Below the pieces are notes generated by a model, which saw only the letters and a list, made by a program, of their open reading frames with translations, was not told the DNA's origin and did no database searches. The translations under genes were made by a program, and so were the position numbers. Source: Holosporales bacterium (GTDB lineage: Bacteria > Pseudomonadota > Alphaproteobacteria > Paracaedibacterales > UBA11393). From it: a DNA stretch of 33,806 nucleotides. The stretch is from NCBI GenBank assembly GCA_003542655.1, contig DPKF01000031.1, positions 1-33,806 of the forward strand, written 5' to 3'. Position 1 is the first letter of the stretch; each line of letters starts with the position of its first letter. This document shows positions 766 through 32,352 of this stretch, one piece after another.

Positions 766-860
766 GTTTTTCCTGTCGATCAAGGTGTAAAAAAACATTG
801 CCACAATGGTGTAACATTGTTTACTTTATATAGTATAAACATTAATGCCTTTGAACTAAA

Positions 861-2147: not shown

Positions 2148-2149
2148 TC

Positions 2150-3136: not shown

Positions 3137-3176
3137 TACGAATGAAAAATAAAATTTTATATAGAGCTTGTTGTTA

Positions 3177-3752: not shown

Positions 3753-3755
3753 TGA

Positions 3756-4514
3756 CTATCCAAACATATTTTGCGGAGCCGTCGAAGCAGGTGCCGGGTT
3801 GTTAAAAAACATGTTATTACTTTGCTGGTCACTCATATCTTGAATTTTCTTGACAAGTGCACCATATTTTTTATCAACTATAGCATTAATTTTTGCCTCA
3901 AGTTCTGCATCAGTCATTGAAGGTGCAGCTGGCGCTGGTGGAGCAGGTGGCGCCATTGCTTTAACGTAAGTATATACGTTTTGCGTTATCGTCGCTATGG
4001 TATTAAGTGTTACCTGACTAAAAGCGATACCCATTTGCGCAAGATCGCTTTCCCTTTGTTTTTTAACTGCGTCTGAGGTTCTGCCGAGCATAGCAAATAT
4101 ATCATTTGTTTGATCTATGACGGTCACAACAGCTTGATATTGTTGTTGCTGATATAAGCCATTAAGTGCTGTTTTTTGTGCAGTCGTTGCATGTTGTAAA
4201 GCAGTAAATTGTGTTAATTTCTGCTGGGCTTGTTGCTGAATCGTGCCTTGTTGTTGTGTTTTTTGTAAATCCGTTTGGAATGTGTCTTGTGCACTTTTTG
4301 CAGCATCGCTTAGGCTTTTTGTGGAATTATACTCTTGCACGCCATTTTTTAGTGCAGCTTTAGCGGGATCAACATACTGCTGAATTTGACCTTTATTTTC
4401 ATCCCATGCTTTCGTCGCAGTCTGTTTAAGGTCATCTAACCAGCCTGCACAGATTGTATTATGCGTTAGAACGAAAATGCCTAAAAACGGCAGTACTTTT
4501 TTTTGAATAACCAT
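3756..4514 (-). CDS. Secreted Q-rich, probably helical hypothetical protein
   Basis: 252-aa ORF with an N-terminal hydrophobic signal (VLPFLGIFVLTHNTICAG). Long Gln-rich stretches (QKTQQQGTIQQQAQQKL, LYQQQQYQ). A PPAPPAPAAP proline tract. No family recognised. Confidence 0.6.
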   Translation of the reverse strand: MVIQKKVLPFLGIFVLTHNTICAGWLDDLKQTATKAWDENKGQIQQYVDPAKAALKNGVQEYNSTKSLSDAAKSAQDTFQTDLQKTQQQGTIQQQAQQKLTQFTALQHATTAQKTALNGLYQQQQYQAVVTVIDQTNDIFAMLGRTSDAVKKQRESDLAQMGIAFSQVTLNTIATITQNVYTYVKAMAPPAPPAPAAPSMTDAELEAKINAIVDKKYGALVKKIQDMSDQQSNNMFFNNPAPASTAPQNMFG

Positions 4515-4612
4515 AAAATATTCCAGCGTAAAATATAATTCTTTATTTTATACTGACATATGTAAATTAATAAAAAGTTAATATTGGTGCATTTATTCAG
4601 CAATCGCCATTT

Positions 4613-6899: not shown

Positions 6900-7493
6900 A
6901 TGTCGTTTCCGTACAATAATCCACTCCACAACACAAGCTTTAGTGAACCAGTACCCAATATAAAAGATATTTTATTCCATTCAGATATGGATTCTGGAAC
7001 ATTGACCCCTACATGGATGTTAAAAATGGATGATGTATTTGAAGACATGTCAGAAATGGAAGTTGACGGTGGTACAATGTTTAACCCCTGCTTTGGGTTT
7101 AAAATGTTTGCACGTCGTCAAGTAAGCGGCTATCGATTAACACAAAATTATGCCAATTCGCGCGTCCACCATTCGCGCATTTGGTTTGTTGTGCCACTTG
7201 ATAACAGTACGCCAACCCTCTTCAACTATATGCATAATGGAAAAATTATTGAATCAACATCAATTGTGCGCCTTATTAATATTGGCGGAGAAGAATACAA
7301 CCAAATTATGTGGCAAGCAACTTTTGAGAATTCGCACCTAGAGCATGTTGAAATTATTCGTGATTATGTGATGATCGCCTTATCAGTCTCCACTGGAGAG
7401 CAAAAAGTCTTTAAATATAACAAAGATGGAACAAAAGGTGGTCAAGCTGTGTCAAGCTATGACTATGCAACAAATACTGGTGAAAAAGAATAA
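6900..7493 (+). CDS. Divergent Hcp-like protein (type VI secretion tube family); possible shorter form starting at ATG 7017
   Basis: Core motifs line up with Hcp proteins as I recall them. FVVPLDNSTPTLFNYMHNGK matches the ..iDkaSPnLmkya.tGK block. GGEEYNQIMWQATFENSHLEHV matches GG..leYl.itmedv.vt.v. GGQAVSSYDYATN matches the C-terminal GG.v..gYD.kaN. MLKMDDV resembles the mFLKidgi N-terminus. Starting at M40 (7017) would give 158 aa, close to the Hcp lengths I recall (about 160 aa). Confidence 0.55.
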   Translation: MSFPYNNPLHNTSFSEPVPNIKDILFHSDMDSGTLTPTWMLKMDDVFEDMSEMEVDGGTMFNPCFGFKMFARRQVSGYRLTQNYANSRVHHSRIWFVVPLDNSTPTLFNYMHNGKIIESTSIVRLINIGGEEYNQIMWQATFENSHLEHVEIIRDYVMIALSVSTGEQKVFKYNKDGTKGGQAVSSYDYATNTGEKE

Positions 7494-7553: not shown

Positions 7554-8864
7554 ATGCGCATTCATATTATTGGTCCGTTAGAAGGTTATGGTACAGAGGC
7601 CGCTAAAATGGCTATGGATAAAGGTGCACAAGTATTTTCCTGCACTAACATTGAAGAAAGTTTAAATAATTTACGCAAAGGCAATAATTGCGATCTAGTC
7701 CTTATTGATGTTAGCCTCGATATAAAAGCATTTATCACGTCATTAAAGGAAGAACGTTTTCACCTTGATGTGGTTGGATGCGGCGTTAAACCAGACCCAA
7801 AAAAAGCAGCCATTGCCATTCGTGCTGGTGCAAAAGAATACATTCCCCTACCCCCTGATCCAGAGATGATCTCTGCATTATTGCAGTCGCTTTCTCCTGC
7901 ACCTGAACAATCTATTATTGCAAATGCCCCTGCAATTAAAAAGGTCTTAGAACTTGCGGATCGTGTTGCATCAAGTGAAGCGAACATTCTGCTTACAGGT
8001 GAATCTGGAACGGGAAAAGAAGTTCTGGCACATTACATTCATCGTCAATCAAAACGTCAAAAAAAACCATTTATTGCAATAAACTGCGCAGCCATACCTG
8101 ATAATTTATTAGAATCTGAACTTTTCGGCCATGAAAAAGGTGCATTCACCGGCGCCCTTACACAACGTATTGGAAAATTTGAATCTGCAGATGGAGGCAC
8201 ATTATTATTAGATGAAGTCACTGAAATGCCCCTACAGATGCAAGCAAAGCTTTTGCGCGCTATCCAAGAGAAAATTATTGATCGCGTAGGTGGCACAAAA
8301 CCTGTTTCCATCAATATTCGCATTATTGCAACCAGCAACCGCGACATGTTACATGCTATAAAAAATGGTGACTTTAGAGAAGATTTATACTACAGATTAA
8401 ACGTTGTCAATTTGACCCTGCCACGTCTGCAAGAAAGACCAGTGGATATAATCCCCTTAGCAAATTATTTTATCCAAAAATATGCAAAAATCAATCAAAT
8501 TGCCATAAAACAATTGTCAATAACAGCAGAACAATCTCTGCTTAAATGGCCCTGGCCTGGTAATGTTCGGGAACTAGAAAACTTGATGCATCGCGCTGTT
8601 TTACTTGCAGGTGAAAAAATCCAGCCAACGGATATCTTTGGATATGAATACACCGAAACAACACAATCTAATTTCACTGATAATTCACCAATTGAAACCA
8701 ATGGTTTTATAGGTAAAAGCATTCAAGATGTTGAAAAAGAATTGATATTAAAAACCTTAGCGCACTGCACAGGGCACAAAAATAATGCTGCACAGATTTT
8801 GGGCATATCTATCAGAACACTTCAAAATAAGCTTAAAGAATATGAACAAAGCACATGCTTATAA
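7554..8864 (+). CDS. Sigma-54-dependent enhancer-binding protein (FlbD/FleQ-like) with a degenerate receiver-like N-domain
   Basis: AAA+ Walker A GESGTGKE, GAFTGA loop (HEKGAFTGAL), Walker B LLLDEV. C-terminal Fis-type HTH (AAQILGISIRTLQNKLKEY). flhA starts 15 nt downstream. Confidence 0.9.
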   Translation: MRIHIIGPLEGYGTEAAKMAMDKGAQVFSCTNIEESLNNLRKGNNCDLVLIDVSLDIKAFITSLKEERFHLDVVGCGVKPDPKKAAIAIRAGAKEYIPLPPDPEMISALLQSLSPAPEQSIIANAPAIKKVLELADRVASSEANILLTGESGTGKEVLAHYIHRQSKRQKKPFIAINCAAIPDNLLESELFGHEKGAFTGALTQRIGKFESADGGTLLLDEVTEMPLQMQAKLLRAIQEKIIDRVGGTKPVSINIRIIATSNRDMLHAIKNGDFREDLYYRLNVVNLTLPRLQERPVDIIPLANYFIQKYAKINQIAIKQLSITAEQSLLKWPWPGNVRELENLMHRAVLLAGEKIQPTDIFGYEYTETTQSNFTDNSPIETNGFIGKSIQDVEKELILKTLAHCTGHKNNAAQILGISIRTLQNKLKEYEQSTCL

Positions 8865-8879
8865 AGGGTAATAAAATTC

Positions 8880-11012
8880 ATGTCTGACAGCATTAATCTT
8901 TCAAGCGCAAAAAAAACATCTAATGGGTTTGATTTAGCCGCCCTTAGCCAACGTACCGATTTAATGTTTGCCTTAGCATTTATGGCCGTGATTGCTGTCC
9001 TTATTATGCCATTGCCAAAATTCATGTTAGACAGCTGCCTTGCTATTTCCATTGCATTCTCATTCATGATTTTAATGACTGCCCTTTTTATTGAAAAACC
9101 ATTAGAATTTTCATCTTTTCCAACAATTCTTCTGGTTTCTACCATGTTGCGCTTATCGTTAAACGTCGCCTCAACGCGTCTTATCTTAAGCCACGGACAC
9201 GAAGGAACGAATGCAGCCGGTCGTGTGATTGAAGCCTTTGGACACTTTGTGATGGGTGGTAATTTTGTCATTGGTATCATTGTCTTTATCATCTTACTGA
9301 TTGTGAACTTTATCGTCATCACAAAAGGATCGTCACGTATTGCTGAAGTATCAGCCCGTTTTAGCCTAGATGCCATGCCTGGAAAACAAATGGCTGTAGA
9401 TGCTGATTTATCATCAGGCCTTATAGATGAAGATGAAGCAAAACGTCGCCGAAAAGAACTAGAAGGAGAAAGCAACTTTTTTGGTTCTATGGATGGTGCA
9501 GCAAAATTTGTAAGGGGAGACGCCATTGCAGGGCTTCTCATCACCCTCATCAATATTATTGGCGGCATTATTATTGGTGTCGTCCAACAAGGAGTCAGTT
9601 TAGCTGACGCTGCCCATTCATATATAATCTTAAGTGTTGGTGACGGTCTTGTGACTCAAATACCAGCCATTATTGTATCAACCTCAGCTGGTATGATGGT
9701 TTCTAAAGCTGGTGTTGAAGGAACCGCTGATAAAGCTATGTTTCAACAGTTATCCGCTAATCCCTCTGCCCTTGGGATGAGCTCTTTTTTAATGGGGTGC
9801 ATCGCCCTGCTTCCTGGCATGCCTATTCTCCCCTTTTTAACGCTCAGTGGTTTAACTGGGTTTGCTGCTTGGTTTATTAACGAAAAACAAAAAGGCAACC
9901 AAGAAACCATCCGCAAAAAAGAAAAAGAGCACAAAGCCAAAGAAACGGAAAAAACTTTAGAAACGCAAGCACAGGATGACGCCCTAAACCCTGTGGATTC
10001 TATTCGTATTGAAATGGGCTTTGGCTTACTGTCCTTATTAAATGGTGATTCAAAAAGAAAAGCACTATCTGAACAAATAAAGATACTTCGCAAACAAATG
10101 CTTGGCGATATCGGCATTATTTTACCGTCTGTTCGCATTCAAGATAATTTACAATTAGACCAAGAAGCCTATTCAATTAAAATTAAAGAAATTGAAGCCG
10201 GTTCAGGAACATTACGACCTAATCATTATCTTGTGATGGATCCTGAAGCAAATGATATTAGTATCCCCGGTGAGAAAACAACAGAACCGAGTTTTGGTTT
10301 ACCTGCCCTTTGGGTAGCTGCAGAATATAAAGATCAAGCAGAAGAAAAAAAATATACAGTGGTTGACCCTGCCATGGTTTTAGCAACACATTTATCTGAA
10401 ATTGTTAAAGATAATATTGGCGAACTTTTATCCTATGGAGATGTCCAAAAAGTATTGGACCAAGTTCCTGAATCCTATAAAAAATTATTATCTGATATCG
10501 TTCCTGTCAATATTACCGTTGGCGGCATTCAACGCGTCCTGCAATCCCTTGTAAGCGAACGTGTTTCAATTCGCGATATTGGCACCATTTTAGAAGGCAT
10601 CGCAGAAGCAACGGGTTTTTCTAAAAACACAGACGGCATTGCAGAACATGTTCGCCACAAACTATCGCGCCAAATTAGCTTTAGTAATTTGGATGATAAT
10701 GGCGTCTTACCAATATTAACGCTTGCACAAGAATGGGAAGAAGCGTTTCATCGTTCTTTAGCAGGTGACAACGAAAACAGATATCTTGCCATGGCACCAA
10801 CTGAATCACATCTATTTATGAGAAGAATTGCGGATGAATATGACCGCCTCACCATGATTGGTGAAATGCCTATTCTTATTACAAGCAGCCCCATACGTAT
10901 TTATGTAAGATCTCTGACAGAACGTGTCCGCCCAGCAATACAAGTGATGAGCCAAAACGAACTGCACCCAAAATGTAAAATTCGGAATTTAGGTCAAATC
11001 AGTATGGGTTAG
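8880..11012 (+). CDS. flhA: Flagellar export apparatus protein FlhA
   Basis: FHIPEP signature FPTILLVSTMLRLSLNVASTRLIL, then RIAEVSARFSLDAMPGKQMAVDADL. 710 aa with an N-terminal TM domain and a large cytoplasmic C-domain. Confidence 0.95.
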   Translation: MSDSINLSSAKKTSNGFDLAALSQRTDLMFALAFMAVIAVLIMPLPKFMLDSCLAISIAFSFMILMTALFIEKPLEFSSFPTILLVSTMLRLSLNVASTRLILSHGHEGTNAAGRVIEAFGHFVMGGNFVIGIIVFIILLIVNFIVITKGSSRIAEVSARFSLDAMPGKQMAVDADLSSGLIDEDEAKRRRKELEGESNFFGSMDGAAKFVRGDAIAGLLITLINIIGGIIIGVVQQGVSLADAAHSYIILSVGDGLVTQIPAIIVSTSAGMMVSKAGVEGTADKAMFQQLSANPSALGMSSFLMGCIALLPGMPILPFLTLSGLTGFAAWFINEKQKGNQETIRKKEKEHKAKETEKTLETQAQDDALNPVDSIRIEMGFGLLSLLNGDSKRKALSEQIKILRKQMLGDIGIILPSVRIQDNLQLDQEAYSIKIKEIEAGSGTLRPNHYLVMDPEANDISIPGEKTTEPSFGLPALWVAAEYKDQAEEKKYTVVDPAMVLATHLSEIVKDNIGELLSYGDVQKVLDQVPESYKKLLSDIVPVNITVGGIQRVLQSLVSERVSIRDIGTILEGIAEATGFSKNTDGIAEHVRHKLSRQISFSNLDDNGVLPILTLAQEWEEAFHRSLAGDNENRYLAMAPTESHLFMRRIADEYDRLTMIGEMPILITSSPIRIYVRSLTERVRPAIQVMSQNELHPKCKIRNLGQISMG

Positions 11013-20289: not shown

Positions 20290-21495
20290 TTATGGCAGTG
20301 CACAAACTGCAGGACAGCTGTTACCAATACTTGAGTATAGACTTTCAATCACAACGAAAGCCACCACAGCAGAAAAACTGATAATAAAGGTTGGATAATC
20401 ACAATTTCTTTTAACGATGGCAAATTCAATACGCAAAGCGCTCATAATGAAATACCCCATAATAAAGCTATAAGTTAAGATGCCCATCAAAGGTGTAAAA
20501 TCAAAGAATGGTAGTTTTCTAATAGCAAGACCGCCAACAATCATTGATGATAAAAATATTTGGCGTACTAAGCTAGAACGGCCAGAAAATGTATTTGCAA
20601 GCGTAATGGATTCACAAAATACCAAAGCACCAATCACAACTGTTATCATGATCAATTCAAAAGATCCACCTGATTTAAATAAAGTCTCTAAATGCAAGCC
20701 AAAGAAAAAATGCACAATACCTAAAATTGCTAGATTAGAACCATATAATAGGGGACCATGTGGCATTTCTTCAATCATATTGCGTGCTGCACGCTTTTCA
20801 AAAATATAGTTAAATACAAAGCCAAGGCTTAGTACACCAAAAACGACAAGCAATAAATGCTCTAAGTTTCCAAGATATAAATTTTTTATTTTTTTAGATG
20901 CAAACGGTAAATACTCTAAAACAAACGGAACGCCTTTAATTAACAAATATCCAAAAGAAGCGCCACTGATTATGGAATATCGCTTCCGTGAATCTGTAGA
21001 GAAAAATCCTTTTGCAAGTGCCGCAATCCATTGCATGGCAACAATCAACAATGCACAGGAAGCAACAAGTATAACACCATACGCATCTGCTGCTGCAGCT
21101 TCTTTTTTTGCAACCGAACGTTGTATTGGTTGTAATATTTCTGTTTTCAAGTCTTCATTTGTCAAAACTTCCACCTTGTTTGCGTTTACCGCTTCACCAG
21201 AATTGTCTGATTGTTGCGTTTCACTGTCAGGTAGGGCAGAAACGTCACCAGATGGCATATTTTGCTCACCATTCCCAGATGACGATGCATCGTATGGATT
21301 ATTAGGTGGCACGTCTCCATCCCCAGATGAAGGTTCTGATGAACCATAAGGATTACTAGAGGCTGCCTCACCATCTGCAGATGCTGATGTTCCATAAGGA
21401 TTATCTGCACTTGAATTCATCTGCCCCCCCTCATTCGCATCCGGAGCACTTGATTCAGCACTATTTCCATACATTCCATTTTCAGTTGTAGACAT
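20290..21495 (-). CDS. Polytopic membrane protein with a disordered N-terminal tail carrying NPY(G/D) repeats
   Basis: 401-aa ORF. The first roughly 140 aa are S/N/G/P/D-rich with NPYGTSAS, NPYGSSEPS and NNPYDASSS. The rest is about 7-8 hydrophobic helices. No family recognised. Confidence 0.6.
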   Translation of the reverse strand: MSTTENGMYGNSAESSAPDANEGGQMNSSADNPYGTSASADGEAASSNPYGSSEPSSGDGDVPPNNPYDASSSGNGEQNMPSGDVSALPDSETQQSDNSGEAVNANKVEVLTNEDLKTEILQPIQRSVAKKEAAAADAYGVILVASCALLIVAMQWIAALAKGFFSTDSRKRYSIISGASFGYLLIKGVPFVLEYLPFASKKIKNLYLGNLEHLLLVVFGVLSLGFVFNYIFEKRAARNMIEEMPHGPLLYGSNLAILGIVHFFFGLHLETLFKSGGSFELIMITVVIGALVFCESITLANTFSGRSSLVRQIFLSSMIVGGLAIRKLPFFDFTPLMGILTYSFIMGYFIMSALRIEFAIVKRNCDYPTFIISFSAVVAFVVIESLYSSIGNSCPAVCALP

Positions 21496-21598: not shown

Positions 21599-23737
21599 TT
21601 AGCGTCTTTCAACATTTAAAACAACTTTTAAAGCTCTAAGTGCCGCCATAATATGATTAAAATGCATTGTATCTTTGACTTCAATATCAATTAGTAGTTC
21701 CCAAAAGTCATTATTACGATGATTGACTTTAAGATTAATAATATTTGCCGATTCTTGACTAAGTACAGAAGTTACCTTTGAAAGAGCCCCCTCTATATTA
21801 GCTATCATGATTTTTATGCGTACTGTATATCGATCTAAAATATCTAATTGTTTTTCCCACATTAAATCAATAATACGATCCTGATCAATTTTATAAACGC
21901 CAGACTCACAATCTTTTGTGTGAACAGTAATCCCTCTACCTGTCGTAATCACCCCTATTATTTTATCACCTGGAATAGGGTGGCAACATGCAGCAAAATT
22001 CAGTGCCATGCCTGGTATCATTCCCTTAATAGACATAGAATGCTTTGTAGGATGACGTTTTTTGATATGGTCTATCTCTTCTTCAACATCTTTTTTTTGA
22101 TATTCTGACGGATATGCAATGTTTTGAATGCTCCGGGTACTGATTTTGCCTTCGCCTACAGAAACAAATAAATCTTCAACAGAATCAACTTTTAATACGC
22201 CACACACATGCTTTAATACTTTTTCACAAAATAATTGCCCCTCCTTATTAAATGCTTTTTGAATAAGCGCCTGTCCAAGGTCTAAAAATTCTTGACGGTG
22301 TGTTGAACGTACATAGCGACGAATGGCCGCACGCGCTTTTCCTGTAATGACAAATCGTTCCCATGTGGGTGAAGGCTGATGATTTTTATCTGTTAATATT
22401 TCAACTTGATCGCCATTATGCAGAACCGTTCGCAAAGGAACAGACATACCATTAACACGAGAACCAATCGTTTTATTACCAAGATCAGAGTGTATAGCAT
22501 AAGCAAAATCAACAGTTGTTGCACCATGCGGTAACGCAACTAATTTTCCTTTTGGCGTAAAGCAAAAAACTTGATCTTTAAACATTTCAAGTTTTGTGTT
22601 TTCTAAAAATTCCTCAGGTTCATCAGTGGTTTCCAATATATCCAGCAATGAACGCACCCAAGCATATTGACGACCATCATGTTGAATTTTATTTTCTTCA
22701 CTACATTCTTTATAATGCCAATGTGCTGCCACGCCAAATTCTGCAAATTCTTGCATTTTTTTTGTGCGCAATTGAATTTCAATACATTGATTAAGCGGGC
22801 CTAAAACAACTGTATGGAGTGATTGATATCCGTTTGGTTTTGGGGTACTAATATAGTCTTTAAATCTGCCGGGAATAACAGGAAATTCTTGATGAATCAC
22901 ACCAAGTGCTTGATAACAATCAGATACAGATTCAACAGTAATACGAAAAGCCATAACATCAGCCAATTGTTCAAACTTAACATTTTTTCGCTGCATTTTA
23001 TTCCAAATAGAATAAGGCGATTTTTCACGACCCGATATTTCGGTATACAGATTATGAGAACGCATTTTTTCATGCAACTGACAAATAACACTTTCAACCA
23101 AATTATTTGATTGGCTTTTAAGATAGGTTAACCGATGTGAAATAGATTCATAAACATATGAATGAAGTTCTTTAAAAGCAATATCTTCTATTTCTTCCTT
23201 CATTTTATGCAGGCCTATACGCTCTGCCAATGAACAATAAATTTCTAAGGATTCACGGGCAATACGGGCACGCTTCTCTGGATTTTGAATGCAATGTAGG
23301 GTACGCATATTATGCAAGCGATCAGCTAGCTTCACAAGCAATACACGTATGTCTGTTGAAAGCGCTAAGAGTAATTTTTTAAAATTTTCTGCTTGCTGCG
23401 TATTTTCTGATTGTTCCTCAATACGCGTTAATTTTGTAACACCTTTTACAAGCTGAAAAATTTCAGGCCCAAAGGTTTCTTGAATATCACTTTCTGTAAC
23501 ATCTGTATCTTCGACAGTATCATGCAACAATCCCGTCACGACCGAATGTGGGTCAAATTTTAAATCCGCTAAAATATGTGCAACGGCTAAAGGGTGCAAA
23601 AAATAGGGCTCGCCTGAGGCACGTTTTTGCGCTATATGGGCCTTTTCAGAAAAGTCATACGCACGCTGAATCAAATCGAACGTAACAGATGGGTAGTGTT
23701 TTTTAACTTTATTAAAAAGTTCTTCTGCGGGCGACAT
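21599..23737 (-). CDS. spoT: Bifunctional (p)ppGpp synthetase/hydrolase (RelA/SpoT homologue)
   Basis: HD hydrolase motifs HPLAVAHILADL and LHDTVEDT. RelA/SpoT synthetase region (YQSLHTVV). TGS and ACT-like C-terminal regions. 712 aa. Confidence 0.95.
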   Translation of the reverse strand: MSPAEELFNKVKKHYPSVTFDLIQRAYDFSEKAHIAQKRASGEPYFLHPLAVAHILADLKFDPHSVVTGLLHDTVEDTDVTESDIQETFGPEIFQLVKGVTKLTRIEEQSENTQQAENFKKLLLALSTDIRVLLVKLADRLHNMRTLHCIQNPEKRARIARESLEIYCSLAERIGLHKMKEEIEDIAFKELHSYVYESISHRLTYLKSQSNNLVESVICQLHEKMRSHNLYTEISGREKSPYSIWNKMQRKNVKFEQLADVMAFRITVESVSDCYQALGVIHQEFPVIPGRFKDYISTPKPNGYQSLHTVVLGPLNQCIEIQLRTKKMQEFAEFGVAAHWHYKECSEENKIQHDGRQYAWVRSLLDILETTDEPEEFLENTKLEMFKDQVFCFTPKGKLVALPHGATTVDFAYAIHSDLGNKTIGSRVNGMSVPLRTVLHNGDQVEILTDKNHQPSPTWERFVITGKARAAIRRYVRSTHRQEFLDLGQALIQKAFNKEGQLFCEKVLKHVCGVLKVDSVEDLFVSVGEGKISTRSIQNIAYPSEYQKKDVEEEIDHIKKRHPTKHSMSIKGMIPGMALNFAACCHPIPGDKIIGVITTGRGITVHTKDCESGVYKIDQDRIIDLMWEKQLDILDRYTVRIKIMIANIEGALSKVTSVLSQESANIINLKVNHRNNDFWELLIDIEVKDTMHFNHIMAALRALKVVLNVERR

Positions 23738-23755
23738 GTAAAGTAATTTAAAGAG

Positions 23756-24130
23756 TTACTCTTCTAGTATAGGCGCTTCATCTTCTAGAGATCCAGCATC
23801 AAGTTCCATACCTGAAAGATCTTCATGGGCATCCCACTCTTCTTGCTCTTCCAACATAAGTTCTTGTGTATCATTATCAATGTCTTCTTCTGCTGTTTGA
23901 GAAAACAAATTATATTGCAGCGATTTAATAAGGCTGGCTTTTAAAGCTTCATAATTAATTGTTTCTGACGCTATCTCACGCAAGGCAACAACTGGATTTT
24001 TATCATGATCACGTGGCACTGTCAAAGCAGAACCAGCTGCAATTTCGCGCGCCCTTTTTGTTGCAAGCAACACAAGCTCAAAACGTGAAGGGACAAGTTT
24101 AATACAATCTTCAACCGTAACGCGAGCCAT
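23756..24130 (-). CDS. rpoZ: DNA-directed RNA polymerase subunit omega
   Basis: [30 protein letters not shown] is the canonical RpoZ N-terminus. It lies directly upstream of spoT, a conserved pairing. Confidence 0.93.
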
Positions 24131-24424
24131 AATAATACCTTGAATAAAATTTTAGAATATAGATCAAGATACCATAAATTTTTAGGCAATTCAAGCAATT
24201 TCAACAAACCGTGCATTGCAAAAATGCCTTAAAAAACCCCGTTTCGGGATTAACTGTAAAGTTCTAGATAGTAGCGGTTTAAAAGTAGGTACTTTGTAAG
24301 CGTTTAACTGTTTTGGTCAATAATGTTTAAAAGTGGTGTCATTAAAAATGTAGAATTTATAGACTAGGCAACCAAATGGCCGAAAAAGTAGGCTTTCTTA
24401 CCAGGGGGACTAAAAGTATGCGGT

Positions 24425-24931
24425 TCACAAATAGTCTTTTGCCCAATTTTCACTATAATATGCAGGGTCTTCGTGATAAAGCCGCCAAATAAATTGCTCA
24501 AAAGAATCTTCTATTTTAATGTTTGTATACACTGTATAAACAGCATTGGGATGAAGGCTCTCTGGTTTCATAATCAAAAAATTAGAGCTGTCATGAATTT
24601 CAAAAAAGGGAAGATCTCCGGGTTGTAACATTTCGTAGGTGTCTTGAGAAATTAATCCAGAATCATGACCATTTTTTACCATGTCTACAATCATGCTAGG
24701 AGGATTTATACGATTAACACTATAAAAGATGTAATCTTTGTCAAATTTTATAGGATGAGTTAAAAAACCATAACCAATTTCTCTATAAAATTGTCTTAAT
24801 TCACTTGGGAAAGTAATCCCTAATTCTTTTTCTGCTTTTTTAATTTCTATATCATCTATTCGATAAAAAGAATTACTGGGTTTGGTTAAATTTCTAGGCG
24901 AGTCCATAAACTGATTTAAATATTTATACAT
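24425..24931 (-). CDS. SMI1/KNR4 (SUKH-1) family immunity protein
   Basis: IDDIEIKKAEKELGITFPSELRQFYREIGYGFL is the SUKH/SMI1-KNR4 signature. I start it at ATG 24931 (MYKYLNQ), which has AAGGAG 7 nt upstream. The track start at 25039 would overlap the toxin gene by 97 nt. Confidence 0.8.
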   Translation of the reverse strand: MYKYLNQFMDSPRNLTKPSNSFYRIDDIEIKKAEKELGITFPSELRQFYREIGYGFLTHPIKFDKDYIFYSVNRINPPSMIVDMVKNGHDSGLISQDTYEMLQPGDLPFFEIHDSSNFLIMKPESLHPNAVYTVYTNIKIEDSFEQFIWRLYHEDPAYYSENWAKDYL

Positions 24932-24942
24932 TGCATAGCTCC

Positions 24943-25758
24943 TTATGATAAAGTTCTTAGAATTTCCATAAGCCGTGACGCTGATCCGTGCAAGATTTCT
25001 TGGTGCATTGGTGTGGCTGCTGGATGCATGTTCCACCATTCGTGAGGCCCTTTTACTTGTTGGGGAATTATGTGATGGGCTTGAAATTGTGTATCACTCT
25101 TAGCAATCAACTTTCCATCTTTACCAAGAACATCTTTTGTATACTTAGGCCAGTCTCGTACCTTGGTTGTGCCGCCCATATGTTCCCAATCTTTTATTAA
25201 TTTCTGCCTTGTAGCGGGAGTGAAATTATTTGAATGTGACGCTTTCTCGCCTACAGACAGTTTCTCAAATTGTTTGTTCTTTAAGCAATAGTCTATCAGC
25301 TGTTTTTTTTGCTCTATCGTAATTTTTCTACCTGTAGTTATTTCAACTTCTCTCAATGCTGTACGTAACTCTGTACCGGGAACTTCTCGTGCATTTCCAT
25401 TGGCTGCCGTTTGTTTAGCATTTTTTATGACCGCGTTTGCTTCTTTTTTTTGCATAATATGTTTTGCAAATACTTGTCCGGCCTTAAGGGCTGATTCAGC
25501 AGCAACCTGTACAGTGCTCTGCGGTGCCGCCGAAGACTTGACAGCAGCAGGTGCAGCTCCGTTATGTCCAGCAGCACCGCCTCTGCTTACTATACCACCT
25601 GTACCCTGTGCTTTCATAGAGCTTTGTGTTGGGATAGTATGGCCCATTGTCCTTGCGATGTCTGCCCTAACTGTGGTGGCACCTATGCTAACCAAAAGAC
25701 CTAAAAGGAGTCTGAAAAATAGATTGTAACGAAAACCTATCTTGTTTTGAAACGTCAT
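24943..25758 (-). CDS. Secreted HNH (beta-beta-alpha-Me) nuclease toxin, colicin-DNase/AHH-like
   Basis: Signal peptide (LFFRLLLGLLVSIGATTVRA). Ala/Gly-rich linker. The C-terminal FQAHHIIPQQVKGPHEWWNMHPAATPMHQEILH aligns by eye with the colicin E9 H-N-H motif [33 protein letters not shown] (recalled). A SUKH immunity gene follows. Confidence 0.75.
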   Translation of the reverse strand: MTFQNKIGFRYNLFFRLLLGLLVSIGATTVRADIARTMGHTIPTQSSMKAQGTGGIVSRGGAAGHNGAAPAAVKSSAAPQSTVQVAAESALKAGQVFAKHIMQKKEANAVIKNAKQTAANGNAREVPGTELRTALREVEITTGRKITIEQKKQLIDYCLKNKQFEKLSVGEKASHSNNFTPATRQKLIKDWEHMGGTTKVRDWPKYTKDVLGKDGKLIAKSDTQFQAHHIIPQQVKGPHEWWNMHPAATPMHQEILHGSASRLMEILRTLS

Positions 25759-25847
25759 AATGAGGTTTTTAGTCCTTTGTCGTGCTGGCCTCTAGTGCCG
25801 CGATTTCTTCCTCAGATTTAAGCAATTTTTTTAAATTGTTTATCCTA

Positions 25848-26594
25848 TCAATCATACAACCCACCAAGTTGTTTTGTAATAAGCTCTTTAGGCACAAGGG
25901 GATAGTCTACCATCACATCTAAGCCCTTAAAGCGTGCAAGATTCACAACAGCAAGTGGCCAAAAGGCGATCACCTCATCAACAGTGCCACCAAAAATGCC
26001 TTGGGGGGTGCTTAACCGTTTGTGACCCTTGATCATGGTAGCGAATCCAGAAAGGAACTTTTCCTTATCGTGATCGTAAATTGCTTGAAAGCAAAGCGCA
26101 TACCCAACATAGGATTTTAATCTTTTAGCAAATATTATTTCCATATCATTTAAATCTGCACGTGTACCATCTTGGCCCAGAATAAAAAGGCGAAAAGCTT
26201 TATGGCAGTGTTTTGCAAGTGGTCCAGTTTTTTTTAAGTTAATATTTAAAAACCTTTTCACTATATTTTTGATCAAATCTAAATCTTGGGTGCATAACGT
26301 TTCAAAGATTTTGTCAAAAGCTGGAGCGCTTACAAATTCATAATCTTCTGGATATTCACCTGCATCACGTTTATCAAGCATTTTGTTTTGATAATGCACA
26401 ACCTGTTTCATATGATCAATGAAACCCTGAACATCGTGATCCAGAACATAGGAACATACGGCGAAAAAACGGTGATCATCCATATACCAATACCATGTAC
26501 GTGGATCGTCTTCTCCTTTTTCTTCTTTTCTCTTGTTATGTTGCTCTAAATATTCAATCTTTAAATCGGATAATCTTTCTTGCAAATCTCCCAT
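25848..26594 (-). CDS. Putative immunity protein (family unassigned) paired with the truncated toxin domain upstream
   Basis: 248-aa cytoplasmic-looking, probably helical protein. Its ATG is 1 nt after the toxin stop, and an AGGAGA Shine-Dalgarno sits inside the toxin's last codons (CAATTAGGAGAATAATATG). The assignment rests on position only. Confidence 0.5.
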   Translation of the reverse strand: MGDLQERLSDLKIEYLEQHNKRKEEKGEDDPRTWYWYMDDHRFFAVCSYVLDHDVQGFIDHMKQVVHYQNKMLDKRDAGEYPEDYEFVSAPAFDKIFETLCTQDLDLIKNIVKRFLNINLKKTGPLAKHCHKAFRLFILGQDGTRADLNDMEIIFAKRLKSYVGYALCFQAIYDHDKEKFLSGFATMIKGHKRLSTPQGIFGGTVDEVIAFWPLAVVNLARFKGLDVMVDYPLVPKELITKQLGGLYD

Positions 26595-26595
26595 A

Positions 26596-27027
26596 TTATT
26601 CTCCTAATTGTGGGGCATGGGGCAAATCAACTTTCGTCCAAGAATTATGGCCACTTGCATCTGTGACATTCACACGACGACGGATTAAGCCTAGGTTATT
26701 TTCTAAAATTTTTGCTGTTGATTTTAATGTTGGATCTTCTATTTTTTTCATATCCCTGATCTTTGCTAAAACCCAAGGTTCACTCATTTGTGTAACCTCG
26801 TTAACATTTTTAGCCATGCTTGCATTTCCTGATGTTGCATATTTTGATTCTACAATAATAATGTCAGCGGGTACACCCGGTTTTTCCCATTTTACAAATA
26901 CACCATCAAACCCCTTATTACCTGGTAGTTTAGATTCAAGTTTTACATAACCGGCACGAAGCATCGTTGCTTCACCGGCTGCCTCTCCAATTGCCCCTTT
27001 AACTTGGGCAACACGGGCGTTTAACAT
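26596..27027 (-). CDS. 5'-truncated (orphan) toxin C-terminal domain with a PD-(D/E)xK restriction-endonuclease-like motif
   Basis: GAIGEAAGEATMLRAGY...GFDGVFVKW...ADIIIVESKY gives a D...ExK arrangement. The frame stays open upstream of the first Met into antisense IS630 sequence, with no SD. So the delivery part of the gene is missing. Confidence 0.55.
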   Translation of the reverse strand: MLNARVAQVKGAIGEAAGEATMLRAGYVKLESKLPGNKGFDGVFVKWEKPGVPADIIIVESKYATSGNASMAKNVNEVTQMSEPWVLAKIRDMKKIEDPTLKSTAKILENNLGLIRRRVNVTDASGHNSWTKVDLPHAPQLGE

Positions 27028-27029
27028 AG

Positions 27030-27481
27030 GTGTGGGGAGAGAAAGGAAAACGTCAGCGCATTTTAAAAGACCTTCGTTTTAAGTATACCTATATTTATGG
27101 TGCAATATGTCCGGAGCGCGATACGGGTGAGGCCATTATCGTTAATGAAGTTTCAAAAGTAGCTATGGAAAAACATCTGATGCTGTCAGTAAAATTATTC
27201 CAATAGATCGACATGCTCTCATGGTTATGGATAAAGCGCCGTGGCACAGATTTTTAAATGTTCCTAAAAATATCACGATTGTTCATTTACCTTCGTATAG
27301 TCCAGAACTGAATCCACATGAAAACATTTGGGAATATATGAAAAATAACTTTCTCTCAAATCGTGTGTTTAATACTGTGGATGATATCCTTGAGGCGTGT
27401 TGTGAGGCATGGAATAAACTTACTGCTGAGAAAGGACGTATCACTTCTATTGGAACTAGAACTTGGGCAAACATTACCTAA
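27030..27481 (+). pseudogene. IS630-family transposase, C-terminal part only, frameshifted
   Basis: My translation gives VWGEKGKRQRILKDLRFKYTYIYGAICPERDTGEAIIVNEVSKVAMEKHL in one frame. It then continues as DAVSKIIPIDRHALMVMDKAPWH...LPSYSPELNPHENIWEYMK (DDE catalytic region) in another frame. The switch is at about 27179. The N-terminal roughly 150 aa are missing. Confidence 0.8.
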
Positions 27482-27717
27482 AATTTTATGAAAATGGTAT
27501 GATAAGCATCTGGATACTTTTCAATATCCTGCTTTAGAGCATCCATATCTATTTTTGTGGCCGGCTTATGACGAGTGGCATGTGGTTCAATCTTTTTTGA
27601 CCAACGAAATAAGGTCGCCATAGAAATATTAAATAATTGGGAGATTTCTAGAAAGGTTAAATTTTGATCAGCTTTAATGCTAAAAATCTTGCGGCGCAAA
27701 TCTAAGGAGTAAGTCAT
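27478..27717 (-). pseudogene. IS630-family transposase, N-terminal HTH fragment only
   Basis: MTYSLDLRRKIFSIKADQNLTFLEISQLFNISMATLFRWSKK...LKQDIEKYPDAY matches IS630 N-terminal HTH regions. Similarity stops after PDAYH (about 27499), where it meets the end of the opposite-strand fragment. Confidence 0.8.
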
Positions 27718-27839
27718 GGAATAGTGGCTAAATAATATTATTATACCTCATTTTATACTGGTTTAGCTATATCATACACATAAAAACACAGAACCAGTAA
27801 AAATTTTTCATCCCGAATTGGGGCCTTGTGCAAGCGATG

Positions 27840-28091
27840 TTACAGTACCTCAATTTGTATAGCATGCAACCCTTTTTTTAAAACAACATCTAACGCATGA
27901 TATATTTTTTGATGGATTTGAATTTTTGTTAGCGAGCTAAAAGATTCAGATTTAATTGAAATTTTAACATGCGTTATACCTGTATCGCTTCCCTCGTAAT
28001 GATCAGCGTGCTTATATGAATGGTCTTCTATCTTCAAAACATCAGGGGACAATATGTTTAACGCCTCTTCAATTTCTAATAAAGTAATCAT
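27840..28091 (-). CDS. BolA-family protein
   Basis: 83 aa. The pattern ...HVKISIKSESFSSLTKIQIHQKIYHALDVVLKKGLHAIQIE matches BolA (H.f.v.ivs..F.g....rH..vy..l....iHAl). Confidence 0.85.
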   Translation of the reverse strand: MITLLEIEEALNILSPDVLKIEDHSYKHADHYEGSDTGITHVKISIKSESFSSLTKIQIHQKIYHALDVVLKKGLHAIQIEVL

Positions 28092-28159
28092 AATCTATAT
28101 AATATTTTGTAATAGGATATATTTTGCATTGTAATACATATAAATGGCATTATAAAACT

Positions 28160-29032
28160 ATGAAAAAAATATATAGACAAAAAACACTTCAAGCCCCTGT
28201 AAGGTTACAAGGGATTGGCGTGCATTCCGGCACTTCTATAAATCTAGCGCTCATGCCCGCATCTGTTGATCACGGCATCAAATTTCAAAGAACAGATGTT
28301 GATGCGCATAATCTTATTGAGGCAACCTATAACCTTGTATCAGACACAAAAATGTCGACAACGCTAACCAATGAAAATGGTGTTAGCATTTCAACTGTAG
28401 AACATCTCATGGCAGCGCTTTCTGGTTATGGAATTACCAATTGTCTTATTCAAGTATCAGGCTCTGAAATACCCATTATGGATGGAAGTGCCCAAAATTT
28501 TTGTCATGCTATCCAGACAGCGGGTATAAAAACACAAGAAAAATCGACTCAATCTGTTAAAGTATTAAAGACGATTCGTGTCACAGCGGGAACGTCTTGG
28601 GCAGAATTATCCCCATCTTCAGAGCGCACCTTTACAATTAATTTTGATTTTTCAAACCGCTTGCCAAGCACACTGAAACAATCAAAAGATATAACGTTCA
28701 ACCTAGAAGACGAAGATTTTCATTTATTATTTGCAAAAGCACGCACTTTTGGGTTATTTGAGGATGCACAAAAGGTACAAGCTATGGGCCTTGCAAAAGG
28801 CGCAAGCTTAGACAATACAATTATTATTAAAGATGAGGGCGTCTTAAACCCCGAAGGGCTCCGTCACCCAGATGAGTTTTCACACCATAAAATATTGGAT
28901 GCTATCGGCGATTTAGCTTTATGTGACCAAACCATAATGGGTGCTTACACTGCTTATAATGGATCACATGACCTAAACAACAAACTACTGCGTGCACTTT
29001 TTAATACGCCAAGTGCATGGAAAAACACTTAA
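28160..29032 (+). CDS. lpxC: UDP-3-O-acyl-N-acetylglucosamine deacetylase LpxC
   Basis: MKKIYRQKTLQAPVRLQGIGVHSG...TVEHLMAAL...HHKILDAIGDLAL. I start it at ATG 28160, which matches the LpxC N-terminus, rather than the track's upstream non-ATG start at 28124. Confidence 0.93.
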   Translation: MKKIYRQKTLQAPVRLQGIGVHSGTSINLALMPASVDHGIKFQRTDVDAHNLIEATYNLVSDTKMSTTLTNENGVSISTVEHLMAALSGYGITNCLIQVSGSEIPIMDGSAQNFCHAIQTAGIKTQEKSTQSVKVLKTIRVTAGTSWAELSPSSERTFTINFDFSNRLPSTLKQSKDITFNLEDEDFHLLFAKARTFGLFEDAQKVQAMGLAKGASLDNTIIIKDEGVLNPEGLRHPDEFSHHKILDAIGDLALCDQTIMGAYTAYNGSHDLNNKLLRALFNTPSAWKNT

Positions 29033-29296: not shown

Positions 29297-30403
29297 TCAC
29301 GAATTTAAAATAAAATTTAACATCATTGCTAAAGACTTCATCGCCCTATTACGGACGCCCTCTAAACAACCACCATTTTCTTTATAGTTTTCCATTATTT
29401 GCTGTAAAACAAGATATTTAAGCGTGCCAAAAGTGGTATCACCATCAAGCGCCTTAAGCTCATCTAAAATAGAAATTGTATAAGCCACAAGTGATAAAAC
29501 TTTAGGGCGATTTGCCGCTTGCATTACTGCACCCGCAATCCATCTTTCTCCTGCTTCAGCTGAAAAACCATGTTGCGCTTGTACGCTATCATCTGGAAAA
29601 TGGCTCATAAAACGAAAAAGCACTTGATAAACTTCAGAACGCTTAGGGCCTTCTGCTTCTGCTGCAGCTTCTTCCTTGTAGTCAGCCTTACCAAAACCCA
29701 TATCGTTTGCTACTTGTAATAATGCATCAATATTTGCTGCACAAAAATCGTCATGCTGATGCACATCACCAAAAGTATTAATCTGTGTCAGAACGGATGC
29801 AACAACTTGACGCATATCAGACACTTTAGGATGCCTGCGTGCAGATAACATTTTAATAACAACTAATTCTCTTGCTGCATTAGCAACAGCATATTGTGCT
29901 GGTAAAGGAATACCAAATAATACATGCTTAATATGGGCTATATCACTTGATGAAAAATGATCACCAAGAGCGGCAGTTATATTATCGGGACCAATCGCTT
30001 CCAACGCCCCTAAAATGATACCTGCCTGTTTTAATTTTTCTGCAAGAGATTCTGGCAATTCTGGTGCTGCATGTCTAACAGACCTTGTGCCTTCTGGCCT
30101 CACCGATAGTGCAGCAGGCGCAGCTGCTTCAGGATGTGCAAATAAAACGCTAGAAATAACTGCTAAATCATGCTGTGACAATCCGCTATCAGAAAATACA
30201 GCACGGACGTCCTCAGCATTATGAAATTGTCTTAAAACATCAGCGTGAATATCATTTTCTATCAGTTTGAACACTAATGCACTTGGTAGCCCCTCAATTC
30301 CATATTGTGCTGCAATAGATTGCTCTAGCGCATCATCATCTGATGCAAATACCTGTGTCATCAGTGTTGTAACGAACACCATTTTAAAAAAAACTTTTTT
30401 CAT
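29297..30403 (-). CDS. Secreted hypothetical protein with an internal roughly 52-aa duplication
   Basis: Signal peptide MKKVFFKMVFVTTLMTQVFA. Two related segments, LPSALVFKL...SQHDLAVISSVLFAHP and LPESLAEKL...SSSDIAHIKHVLFGIP. Good AAGGA SD. No family recognised. Confidence 0.6.
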   Translation of the reverse strand: MKKVFFKMVFVTTLMTQVFASDDDALEQSIAAQYGIEGLPSALVFKLIENDIHADVLRQFHNAEDVRAVFSDSGLSQHDLAVISSVLFAHPEAAAPAALSVRPEGTRSVRHAAPELPESLAEKLKQAGIILGALEAIGPDNITAALGDHFSSSDIAHIKHVLFGIPLPAQYAVANAARELVVIKMLSARRHPKVSDMRQVVASVLTQINTFGDVHQHDDFCAANIDALLQVANDMGFGKADYKEEAAAEAEGPKRSEVYQVLFRFMSHFPDDSVQAQHGFSAEAGERWIAGAVMQAANRPKVLSLVAYTISILDELKALDGDTTFGTLKYLVLQQIMENYKENGGCLEGVRNRAMKSLAMMLNFILNS

Positions 30404-30495: not shown

Positions 30496-31575
30496 TTAAT
30501 AAATCGTTTTTTGTTTCATTTCCATCACAATGCGCAAAACAGCCGCAACAGATTTATAGAATTTTGGTGGAATTTCGTCTTCTATATCAACCAGACCATA
30601 CAAAGAACGCGTCAACGGTGGGTTTTCAATCACGGGTATATTATTATTTTTTGCAACTTCCCTTATGCGTAACGCAACAGCATCTTGCCCCTTTGCAACC
30701 ACAATAGGGGCATGCATACTGTCTTCGTCCCATTTTAAGGCAATTGAGTAGTGCGTTGGGTTTGTAAGAATAACTGTTGCTTTTGGGACTTCCGCCATCA
30801 TACGCTTACGTGATTTTTCCATCCGCAACTGCTTTAATTTTTGCTTAATTTCTGGGTCTCCATCAGCTTCCTTATGCTCTTTTTTTAAGTCATATTTACT
30901 CATACGCATTTTTTTAAAATAACTAAAACGCTGATAAAAATAATCACCCACAGCAATAAAACCAAATGCAATAATCAAACTTAAATAGACAACAAAATTT
31001 AAATCATATATAACTTTTCCAAACTCCGATGTGCTTAGCCACATCCAAGTACTTAAAAATTTTGTTTCATCATGCAAACTGATATATAAAGCACCACCAA
31101 GCACAATTAATTTAGCAACATTTTTCAATGAATCGACTAGGTTTTCTTTTGAAAAGATCTTCTTAAACCCCTTTTTTAAAGATAAATTAGAAAATTTAGG
31201 TTTAATCGATTTAAACGTAATAGCGCCCCATTTTTGCGGTAAACCACCAAGTAAGGCGGCCACAAAAAGCACAATCATAGTTGGCGCTAATATTTTTAAA
31301 AGAACAATATAAACATGCCACCCTACTTTTTTTGTGCTTATTTCTAAATCAAACGTATGAGGACGCTCTATAAAAACGAGGCTATCTGTCAGCATTGTTT
31401 TTACAGACCAAGGCAGTACATACAAAATGCAAATGGCGCTACTCATAATCATACAAAAGGTGATAATTTCTTTTGAAAAAACAACATTACCCTCCTCTTT
31501 GGCTTTCTCTAATTTTCGACTAGAAGGTTCTTCAGTCTTATCATCACTATCATCATCGCCCTTATCCTCAGACAT
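30496..31575 (-). CDS. flhB: Flagellar export apparatus protein FlhB
   Basis: The NPTH autocleavage site is present (LTNPTHYSIALKW). Charged N-terminus, four TM helices, 359 aa. Starts 3 nt after the fliR stop. Confidence 0.93.
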   Translation of the reverse strand: MSEDKGDDDSDDKTEEPSSRKLEKAKEEGNVVFSKEIITFCMIMSSAICILYVLPWSVKTMLTDSLVFIERPHTFDLEISTKKVGWHVYIVLLKILAPTMIVLFVAALLGGLPQKWGAITFKSIKPKFSNLSLKKGFKKIFSKENLVDSLKNVAKLIVLGGALYISLHDETKFLSTWMWLSTSEFGKVIYDLNFVVYLSLIIAFGFIAVGDYFYQRFSYFKKMRMSKYDLKKEHKEADGDPEIKQKLKQLRMEKSRKRMMAEVPKATVILTNPTHYSIALKWDEDSMHAPIVVAKGQDAVALRIREVAKNNNIPVIENPPLTRSLYGLVDIEDEIPPKFYKSVAAVLRIVMEMKQKTIY

Positions 31576-31578
31576 AGA

Positions 31579-32352
31579 TCACCTTTTTTGAAAAATTTTA
31601 ATAAAGTTTTCCGAAAAAACAATTTGAAAACCGTTTAGCAGATGCCCTATCAGCAAAGACATCATTAAAAAACCCACAAAAACTTGGGCTGGCATAATAA
31701 TGCTAAACACCTGAATTTGTGGGATAATTTTATTTAAAAGCCCAATACTAAAATTTAAAATTAGCGCCACAATGATAAATGGGTAAGCAAATTGCAGACC
31801 AAGTAAAAACATTTTTTGAAAACTATCAAGTAAACTTATTTTAAAATCATGCAACACGCCAAGCTGATGAATATCAATAAATTCATAGGAATGATATAAA
31901 ACCTGCACAAGCGTATGATGAAAATTTGCTGCAAACAACAAAACAACTGCACCAACTGTTAAAGCGAGTGTAGGTAACATTGTTTGTGAGCCACTAGATG
32001 GATTAAAAAGCATCGCACTGGATAACCCAGATTCCATACCAATAATATGCCCTAAAATATCAATCAAAAAAAACAAAACCTTTGCAGATAACCCTATAAA
32101 TGCCCCCATACCAAATTCTAAAAGCATTAAATATAGAATATTTATTTGATTCAGGTCACTTGTCGTTGGAAGAAACTTACTAATAAGTGGCGTTAAAAAT
32201 ATGGCAAGCGTTGCGGCCAACATAACCTTAGCTTGTGATACAATTTCTTTTTGCGAAAAAATAGGCGCCATCATAATCAAACCTAATACACGGGCAAAAC
32301 ACAAGAAAAACGGATAAAGCCCGTCCAAGGCCAGATTATGGACATTATTCAT
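31579..32352 (-). CDS. fliR: Flagellar export apparatus protein FliR
   Basis: 257-aa polytopic membrane protein located between fliQ and flhB. The N-terminus FFLCFARVLGLIMMAPIFS is typical of FliR. Confidence 0.9.
   Translation of the reverse strand: MNNVHNLALDGLYPFFLCFARVLGLIMMAPIFSQKEIVSQAKVMLAATLAIFLTPLISKFLPTTSDLNQINILYLMLLEFGMGAFIGLSAKVLFFLIDILGHIIGMESGLSSAMLFNPSSGSQTMLPTLALTVGAVVLLFAANFHHTLVQVLYHSYEFIDIHQLGVLHDFKISLLDSFQKMFLLGLQFAYPFIIVALILNFSIGLLNKIIPQIQVFSIIMPAQVFVGFLMMSLLIGHLLNGFQIVFSENFIKIFQKR

Follow-up and report, generated by a model that had tools for sequence, protein, structure and literature searches.

A predicted Sec-exported HNH nuclease toxin and its adjacent SUKH immunity gene in the chromosome of an uncultured Holosporales bacterium

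We analysed contig DPKF01000031.1 of the Holosporales bacterium assembly GCA_003542655.1 along a stretch of 33,806 nucleotides (nt), hereafter the window. Our subject is two adjacent genes on its reverse strand, at 24425-25758: an open reading frame (ORF) for a putative toxin of 271 amino acids (aa) and, directly downstream, a gene of the SUKH (SMI1/KNR4) family. We read them as a polymorphic-toxin-type effector and immunity pair in the chromosome of this uncultured alphaproteobacterium, and we give this reading, together with the mechanism proposed below, a probability of about 0.8. It is built on gene structure, homology, predicted fold, conserved catalytic residues, the conserved adjacency of toxin and SUKH genes, and cassette mosaicism. 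An earlier note, made from the sequence alone, had described a secreted HNH DNase of the colicin E9/pyocin type, translationally coupled to a SUKH gene and unusual in its architecture. Its reading of an exported HNH-superfamily DNase tightly coupled to a SUKH immunity gene stands; the colicin type and the unusual architecture do not. The pair is an ordinary one, with Rhs2CT of Serratia marcescens rather than colicin E9 as its closest kin and with an architecture that is already well documented.

Direct reading of the sequence bore out the gene layout that had been described. The toxin ORF occupies 24943-25758 (reverse strand), and its ATG at 25758 is the earliest available start past the in-frame upstream stop. 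Its TAA stop (24945-24943) overlaps the AAGGAG Shine-Dalgarno sequence (24944-24939) of the immunity gene, and the two signals together span 24939-24945 on the reverse strand. The immunity ATG at 24931 follows 7 nt past the Shine-Dalgarno sequence and 11 nt past the toxin stop. The immunity gene itself (24425-24931, reverse strand) encodes 168 aa, lacks a signal peptide (N-terminal hydrophobic maximum -0.20) and is predicted to act in the cytoplasm. Its SUKH identity was confirmed with Pfam, where it scored 45.5 bits against SMI1_KNR4 (cut-off 25.4) and 39.8 bits against SUKH_6 (cut-off 27).

The toxin domain fills the C-terminal part of the protein, residues ~128-271 (~140 aa; 24946-25377, reverse strand). 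Profile, AlphaFold2 and Foldseek evidence describe it as a four-helix N-terminal subdomain followed by an HNH beta-beta-alpha core, in an Rhs2CT-like clade. A word-indexed search with the toxin returned just three relatives. A profile search that scored all of 1.84 billion representative proteins found the domain in 647 representative clusters at E ≤ 1e-3 and in 339 at E ≤ 1e-10. All of these matches cover profile positions ~122-265, and the domain ends at most 27 residues from the C-terminus in 152 of the 153 sequences retrieved. Full-length members carry LXG (10), DUF637 (6), PT-TG (5), PT-HINT (4), RHS (2), MuF (2) and VgrG (2) modules, as well as WXG100 and PAAR-like ones. Because it holds this extreme C-terminal position on proteins with such varied modules, the domain is a polymorphic-toxin warhead.

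The catalytic residues are conserved throughout the family. The HNH block FQAHHIIPQQVKGPHEWWNMHPAATPMHQEILH can be read directly in the toxin. The catalytic block spans residues 226-257 (QAHHIIPQQVKGPHEWWNMHPAATPMHQEILH; 24988-25083, reverse strand), where conserved columns mark H228, H229, N243, H252 and H257 as the predicted key residues. In an alignment of the toxin domain from 46 family sequences (A3), six positions of the block never vary (H228, W241, N243, P246, H252 and H257) and two hardly do (H229 and W242); the helical subdomain has four invariant positions of its own, Q150, W191, W203 and P204. The catalytic histidines and asparagine are likewise conserved (H229 nearly) in 75 full-length members. 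From the 46-sequence alignment, AlphaFold2 predicted the domain with a predicted local distance difference test (pLDDT) score of 89.9 and a predicted template-modelling (pTM) score of 0.82, as four helices, two hairpin strands and a helix. In domain numbering, the strands of the predicted beta-beta-alpha core span 112-115 and 130-133, and its helix 135-142.

At the level of the family, Pfam HNH was matched by 32 of the 46 members at E ≤ 0.1 (best E 4.4e-5), AHH by three and LHH by one; generic HNH alone recurs. NCBIfam offered nothing useful for the toxin, the IscB model scoring 14 bits against a cut-off of 175. The warhead clade is covered by no named Pfam toxin-HNH model. Membership of Tox-AHH was also considered. 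The toxin's QAHH...N...H...H fits the Tox-AHH motif of [AG]HH, N, H, H (PMC3482391), and the same survey lists Tox-AHH with non-SUKH immunity proteins. We rejected this membership on score, as the toxin falls below the AHH cut-off and only 3 of the 46 members match that model at E ≤ 0.1.

Among solved structures, the family profile has a single significant match, 8cm0_A, the C-terminal toxin of S. marcescens Rhs2 (hmmsearch against the PDB; E 4.8e-11, 45.9 bits, profile positions 29-134). The match spans the helical part and the HH...WWN core; the window toxin as a single sequence reached Rhs2CT at E 0.48 only. Rhs2-CT chains (9t38_A, 9t38_D and 8cm0) also took the first three places among 43 Foldseek matches, with probability 1.00, target-normalised template-modelling scores of 0.64-0.70, root-mean-square deviations of 2.4-3.6 Å and 24% identity. 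Below them came weak generic HNH matches to McrA, Gme HNH, Cas8-HNH and Sda1. H228/H229 of the window toxin align with H1368/H1369 of Rhs2CT, and H252 with H1394.

Rhs2CT has been proven by experiment to be an atypical, Zn/Mg-dependent HNH DNase, delivered through type VI secretion (T6SS) by S. marcescens Db10. Both H1369A and the immunity protein RhsI2 abolish its activity. Intoxication of bacteria depends on EF-Tu, and Rhs2CT, a dual-kingdom toxin, also makes its way into the nuclei of fungi (bioRxiv 10.1101/2025.10.28.685041). The two toxins are alike in domain homology, fold, catalytic His pair and the presence of an adjacent immunity gene, and by analogy the window toxin is probably a DNase as well. 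They differ in delivery, however: Rhs2CT is the C-terminus of a PAAR-Rhs protein, whereas the window toxin has a Sec signal and a linker, with no PAAR, Rhs cage or T6SS context. They also differ in the active site, where Rhs2CT holds its metal histidines on a long disordered loop and the window family carries its compact H-x4-H on the predicted helix that follows strand 2, in a canonical-looking beta-beta-alpha arrangement. A PDB search with the SUKH protein gave chance-level matches only, and the RhsI2 chains of 8CM0/9T38 were not retrieved at E ≤ 1.

We examined eight loci from five phyla (the window, L001, L002 and L004 to L008), and in every one the toxin domain is followed directly by a SUKH gene. 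This conserved adjacency suggests that the SUKH protein neutralises the toxin beside it. The loci include a rock porewater metagenome (L001) and Malaciobacter halophilus (L007), each with a toxin and a SUKH gene; Flavobacterium hercynium (L005), where a 1201-aa toxin is followed by two SUKH genes; Heyndrickxia coagulans (L008), with a toxin remnant and a SUKH gene; and a Ca. Paracaedibacteraceae metagenome-assembled genome (MAG; L006), whose SUKH protein is 46% identical to that of the window. Between toxin and SUKH gene, these relatives show anything from 8 nt of overlap to 18 nt of separation. The 11-nt gap of the window recurs in L001, with AAGGAT, and in L002, L006 and L007 the two genes overlap.

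Two of these loci merit a separate remark. In L002 and L004 (L004 37-2169), genes for the toxin, a SUKH protein, an LHH toxin and SUKH_5 stand in tandem. The L004 record is labelled as a Patescibacteria MAG, and its toxin carries a 4-residue 'MGG(T/S)TKVR' insertion that is otherwise found in the window toxin and in the relatives P0002, P0003, P0005 and P0006. The label and the insertion could reflect either horizontal transfer or a binning error.

The N-terminus of the toxin points to export. Hydrophobicity and codon comparison indicate a signal peptide at residues 1-32 (25663-25758, reverse strand). A positively charged segment, MTFQNKIGFRYNLFFR (K6, R10 and R16), comes first. The hydrophobic core behind it, LLLGLLVSIGATTV, has 14 residues (L17-V30) and leads to the predicted cleavage site, V-R-A|D. 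The 12-residue hydrophobic maximum of 2.30 is within the range of the exported proteins of the window, which runs from 2.04 for a TolC-like protein through 2.12 for SurA and 2.40 for an SH3 protein to 2.52 for an OmpA-family lipoprotein; cytoplasmic proteins reach at most 1.5. These features agree with the Sec-type N-terminus proposed earlier, and the toxin is probably exported by Sec with cleavage near A32.

Behind the signal peptide, 25378-25662 (reverse strand) encodes, by its composition, a low-complexity linker rich in Ala, Gly, Ser and Gln (residues 33-95) and a helical, Lys-rich spacer (residues 96-127). The linker is 37% Ala plus Gly, and the DNA at 25480-25640 has a GC content of 54% against 37% across the window, so the Ala/Gly-rich linker in GC-rich DNA had been correctly described. 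AlphaFold2 gave linker and spacer no confident structure when run on the full-length protein (3-sequence alignment, pLDDT 38).

The start of the gene has a close counterpart elsewhere in the same metagenome assembly (ENA ERZ27315062), where the locus L003 holds a paralogous toxin gene, P0004. Near-identity between the two opens at AAATCTGAGGAAG, ~61 nt before the ATG, and defines by DNA alignment a conserved 5' leader at 25759-25819 (reverse strand); the DNA further upstream is unrelated. Leader and codons 1-34 together are ~88% identical to P0004. Over the codons alone, 90 of 102 nt are identical, with six synonymous and five non-synonymous codon differences. Because the signal-peptide codons differ in this way from the paralogue, and because homologues exist, the toxin gene is real and not a chance ORF. 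Similarity falls off directly after VRADI, with only 34 identities in the 102 nt that follow. JGI metagenome contigs were scanned with a DNA pattern and with a peptide pattern, and neither scan found further signal-peptide cassettes. A leader/signal-peptide cassette common to two different toxin modules of one organism, seen here in two instances, is the only mildly novel element of the system.

The rest of the gene has a different affinity. A C-terminal toxin and immunity module at 24456-25547 (reverse strand) moves as a unit, aligning by blastn with L001 at 85.8% identity over 1119 aligned nt. The L001 toxin (P0002) has a different and unrelated N-terminus of ~180 residues with no signal peptide; the recombination junction with the L001-type module, where the blastn identity begins, is at about residue 71 (~25547). 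Because the module matches L001 and the cassette matches L003, the toxin gene is a mosaic in three parts: the leader and signal-peptide cassette first, then the low-complexity linker, then the toxin/immunity module. Note that residues 1-180 of P0002 (L001 1294-1840) have no Pfam match and contain, in place of the signal peptide, a Gly-rich hydrophobic stretch that resembles a glycine zipper (GAGLRGGRAGFVVGGAAGSIVPGVGTTAGAAVGSVAGAAGAIYV). Possibly, these residues serve the same warhead as another delivery module, so far uncharacterised.

We propose the following mechanism. The toxin would be made in the cytoplasm, where the co-translated SUKH protein would bind its metal-dependent HNH DNase domain and keep it harmless. 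The signal peptide would then direct it through Sec into the periplasm, from which it would leave the cell by a route not encoded in the window, such as a type II secretion system (T2SS), vesicles or lysis. In a target cell without a matching SUKH protein, the domain would degrade DNA. The analogy with Rhs2CT would make H229 the general base and leave H228, H252 and H257 to coordinate the metal ion. The portable leader and signal peptide, the linker and the toxin-plus-immunity module would have been joined by recombination. The targets are most likely rival bacteria that share the host, or else the host cell.

Such an arrangement has ample precedent. In the 2012 survey of polymorphic toxins, Sec-only export (T2SS) was the commonest route, and T2SS and Imm-SUKH were listed for most HNH/EndoVII clades; the Holosporales symbiont Odyssella was found to have full toxin/immunity systems (PMC3482391). 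A crude screen of the family also turned up ~10 other small members that carry only a signal peptide. Given the survey and these members, the Sec-only architecture is standard for polymorphic toxins and unusual by colicin standards only, contrary to the earlier note. The window pair resembles the known HNH/EndoVII toxins with Imm-SUKH in having a C-terminal warhead that recurs across trafficking modules, immunity directly downstream, recombining cassettes and common Sec versions; it differs in that its warhead clade lies outside the named Pfam toxin-HNH models (PMC3113570, PMC3482391).

Several observations weigh against this reading. We saw no outer-membrane secretion system and no receptor-binding or translocation domain in the window that would account for the toxin's arrival in a target cytoplasm. 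The n-region of the signal peptide, at 16 residues, is unusually long. The gene's own upstream AAAGGA, 14 nt before the ATG, is a weak and distant Shine-Dalgarno sequence, and a scan of 24150-27900 found promoter-like and terminator-like sites at about the shuffled expectation (13 against 11.4 and 3 against 2.9, respectively). Rhs2CT is paired with RhsI2, a protein of novel fold that is not SUKH, and neither this immunity nor the need for EF-Tu in entry is transferable to the window toxin. Last, the Pfam comparison suggested in the earlier note gave a divided result. The SUKH protein stands above its cut-offs, whereas the toxin alone stays below those of HNH (PF01844; 16.7-17.8 bits, cut-off 21.4) and AHH (PF14412; 13-14.3 bits over 20 residues, cut-off 22.3). 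The HNH assignment therefore rests on family-level evidence.

An alternative is that the toxin is directed at the host: a DNase that enters the nucleus of a protist and damages or manipulates its DNA, with the SUKH protein protecting the producer only before export. The leucyl-tRNA synthetase (LeuRS) of the window is 68% identical to those of Holosporales MAGs (56-59% to Ca. Paracaedibacteraceae, Finniella, Odyssella and Paracaedibacter), which places the organism in an order known, from the members described, for intracellular symbiosis with amoebae and ciliates. The entry of Rhs2CT into fungal nuclei and its dual-kingdom action also favour a eukaryotic target, and toxin domains have been discussed as effectors of amoeba endosymbionts such as Odyssella (PMC3482391). 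However, the family occurs overwhelmingly on modules for interbacterial delivery (LXG, CdiA-like DUF637, Rhs and VgrG), and cassette-style diversification with a matched immunity gene is a signature of kin conflict. We identified no nuclear-localisation signal or host-delivery system, and the lifestyle of the organism is itself inferred. We consider a host-directed effector unlikely. A more elaborate version is similarly doubtful: that the ~165-bp cassette (61-nt leader and 34-codon signal peptide) is grafted onto orphan modules to yield independently expressed, Sec-exported toxins, of which at least one, an Rhs2CT-like DNase, acts on the host cell and not on rival bacteria.

Another possibility is that the gene is a stored orphan cassette, a reservoir module to be recombined into some large toxin, CdiA-like or Rhs-like, that is encoded elsewhere in the genome. 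P0004 at L003 invites this interpretation, since 63 of its residues repeat, almost without change, the pre-toxin region of the 1181-aa DUF637 protein next to it and form a classic homology arm. The genomic island around the window pair also has an N-terminally short toxin-like ORF beside the debris of an IS630 insertion sequence. In both respects the cassettes recall the orphans of CdiA, Rhs and MafB systems, whose toxin-C-terminal and immunity modules occur in small islands beside insertion-sequence debris. Classical orphan cassettes, however, lack initiation and secretion signals, whereas the cassettes considered here have their own conserved leader and signal peptide and are plausibly expressed and exported alone. 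No homology arm to the L003 DUF637 protein was found in the window toxin, which has its own start codon. The synonymous-biased divergence of its signal-peptide codons suggests translation, and the family's other small signal-peptide-only members also speak for an independent toxin. A mere reservoir module is thus quite improbable.

The layout of L003 is of some interest in itself. Along 384-6420, a 346-aa ORF comes after the 1181-aa DUF637 (CdiA-like) gene; behind it lie a SUKH gene and, last, the orphan P0004 with the signal-peptide cassette of the window. The 346-aa ORF begins by repeating the DUF637 C-terminal peptide (LFQIFVP / DLCSR) and ends in a DHLHELQLGG HNH-like motif. It is possible that the DUF637 gene and this ORF represent a frameshift within one long toxin gene.

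The pair might also be an intracellular addiction (toxin-antitoxin) module that is never exported, its hydrophobic N-terminus being a membrane anchor or irrelevant. The tight coupling of two small genes, the lack of a secretion apparatus nearby and the existence of some HNH/SUKH proteins outside secreted systems are all consistent with this. Yet the positive n-region, hydrophobic h-region and AXA-like c-region are like those of exported proteins from the same genome, the domain is found on secreted polymorphic toxins in many phyla, and the toxin gene precedes the immunity gene, as it does in polymorphic toxin systems. We regard an addiction module as very unlikely.

The comparison with colicin E9 fared worst. 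Colicins are released by lysis proteins, whereas the window toxin has a predicted cleavable Sec signal. The earlier note had claimed a residue-for-residue alignment with the E9 motif, which proved overstated: in an ungapped comparison anchored on HH, the residues HH, P, G, TP and the last H match, whereas N and the middle H both fall one position out of register. There is a general likeness to the DNases of colicins E9/E7 and the S-type pyocins, in the His-Me finger superfamily, the similar HH...N...H...H spacing and the possession of a DNase toxin with co-expressed immunity, and the Rhs2CT authors liken its active site to that of colicin E9 (bioRxiv 10.1101/2025.10.28.685041). We detected no match at family level in sequence or fold, however. 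The toxin has no Pfam match to Colicin-DNase (PF12639) at E ≤ 1. The PDB profile search, read to E ≤ 10, contained no colicin or pyocin chain, and neither did the 43 matches from Foldseek; hhalign of the family against the E9 DNase gave 18% probability over a different segment. On these four comparisons we rejected the kinship with colicin E9. That the toxin is a bacteriocin DNase of this type that has lost its receptor-binding and translocation domains is scarcely credible, as its N-terminal 127 residues are signal peptide and linker and its immunity protein is SUKH and not of the Im type (Colicin_Pyocin).

The current picture of polymorphic toxins is unchanged by the window pair, whose value is mainly for annotation. 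A warhead family of 647 representative clusters that has no name in Pfam can now be set beside one characterised member, Rhs2CT. Immunity in this clade is normally of the SUKH family; the immunity protein of Rhs2 is unrelated. The pair is also a clear case of toxin/immunity cassette shuffling in Holosporales, symbionts of protists, where the target of such systems could be either co-resident bacteria or the host.

The pair sits in a 3.6-kb island between rpoZ-spoT and bolA-lpxC, and a repeat search of 23700-28200 found no notable flanking direct or inverted repeats. Directly upstream in the same island, Pfam and homology point to a second candidate toxin/immunity pair (25848-27027, reverse strand). 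Its first gene, a 143-aa ORF at 26596-27027, has D41, E60-x-K62 and GFDGVF...IIIVESKY in a PD-(D/E)xK-like, restriction-endonuclease-like pattern, and from this pattern we infer a possible nuclease; a PDB search with the protein gave chance-level matches only. A Holosporales MAG encodes a relative with 78% identity whose N-terminal extension is longer and of another kind, so the ORF may be a truncated toxin C-terminus. The 248-aa ORF that follows (25848-26594) scored 27.2 bits against Imm49 (E 3.4e-6), below the cut-off of 30.1; Imm49 is listed with Tox-REase-1 and Tox-REase-6 (PMC3482391). IS630 debris at 27030-27717 abuts the 5' end of the 143-aa ORF, with HTH_Tnp_IS630 (27478-27717, reverse strand) and DDE_3 (27221-27481, forward strand) on opposite strands, and may have truncated a larger toxin gene.

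Beyond the island, the window encodes SurA, PBP1, FlhA, FlhB, LpxB, LpxC, OmpA-family and TolC-like proteins and LeuRS, and on these genes it is chromosomal DNA of a diderm bacterium; it is LpxB, LpxC, SurA and the OmpA-family and TolC-like proteins that mark the host as diderm. Flagellar export is represented by flhA and flhB, which occur together with a sigma-54 activator and a probable fliR-like membrane ORF at 7554-11012 and 30496-32352; the symbiont therefore keeps a flagellar type III export apparatus. Five sizeable ORFs had no Pfam match at E ≤ 1e-5: 20290-21495, 29297-30403 and 3756-4514 on the reverse strand, and 2150-3136 and 6900-7493 on the forward strand. Signal-peptide-like N-termini are present in three of them (2150-3136, 3756-4514 and 29297-30403), and the 401-aa ORF among the five starts with a low-complexity region rich in Ser, Ala, Gly and Asn.

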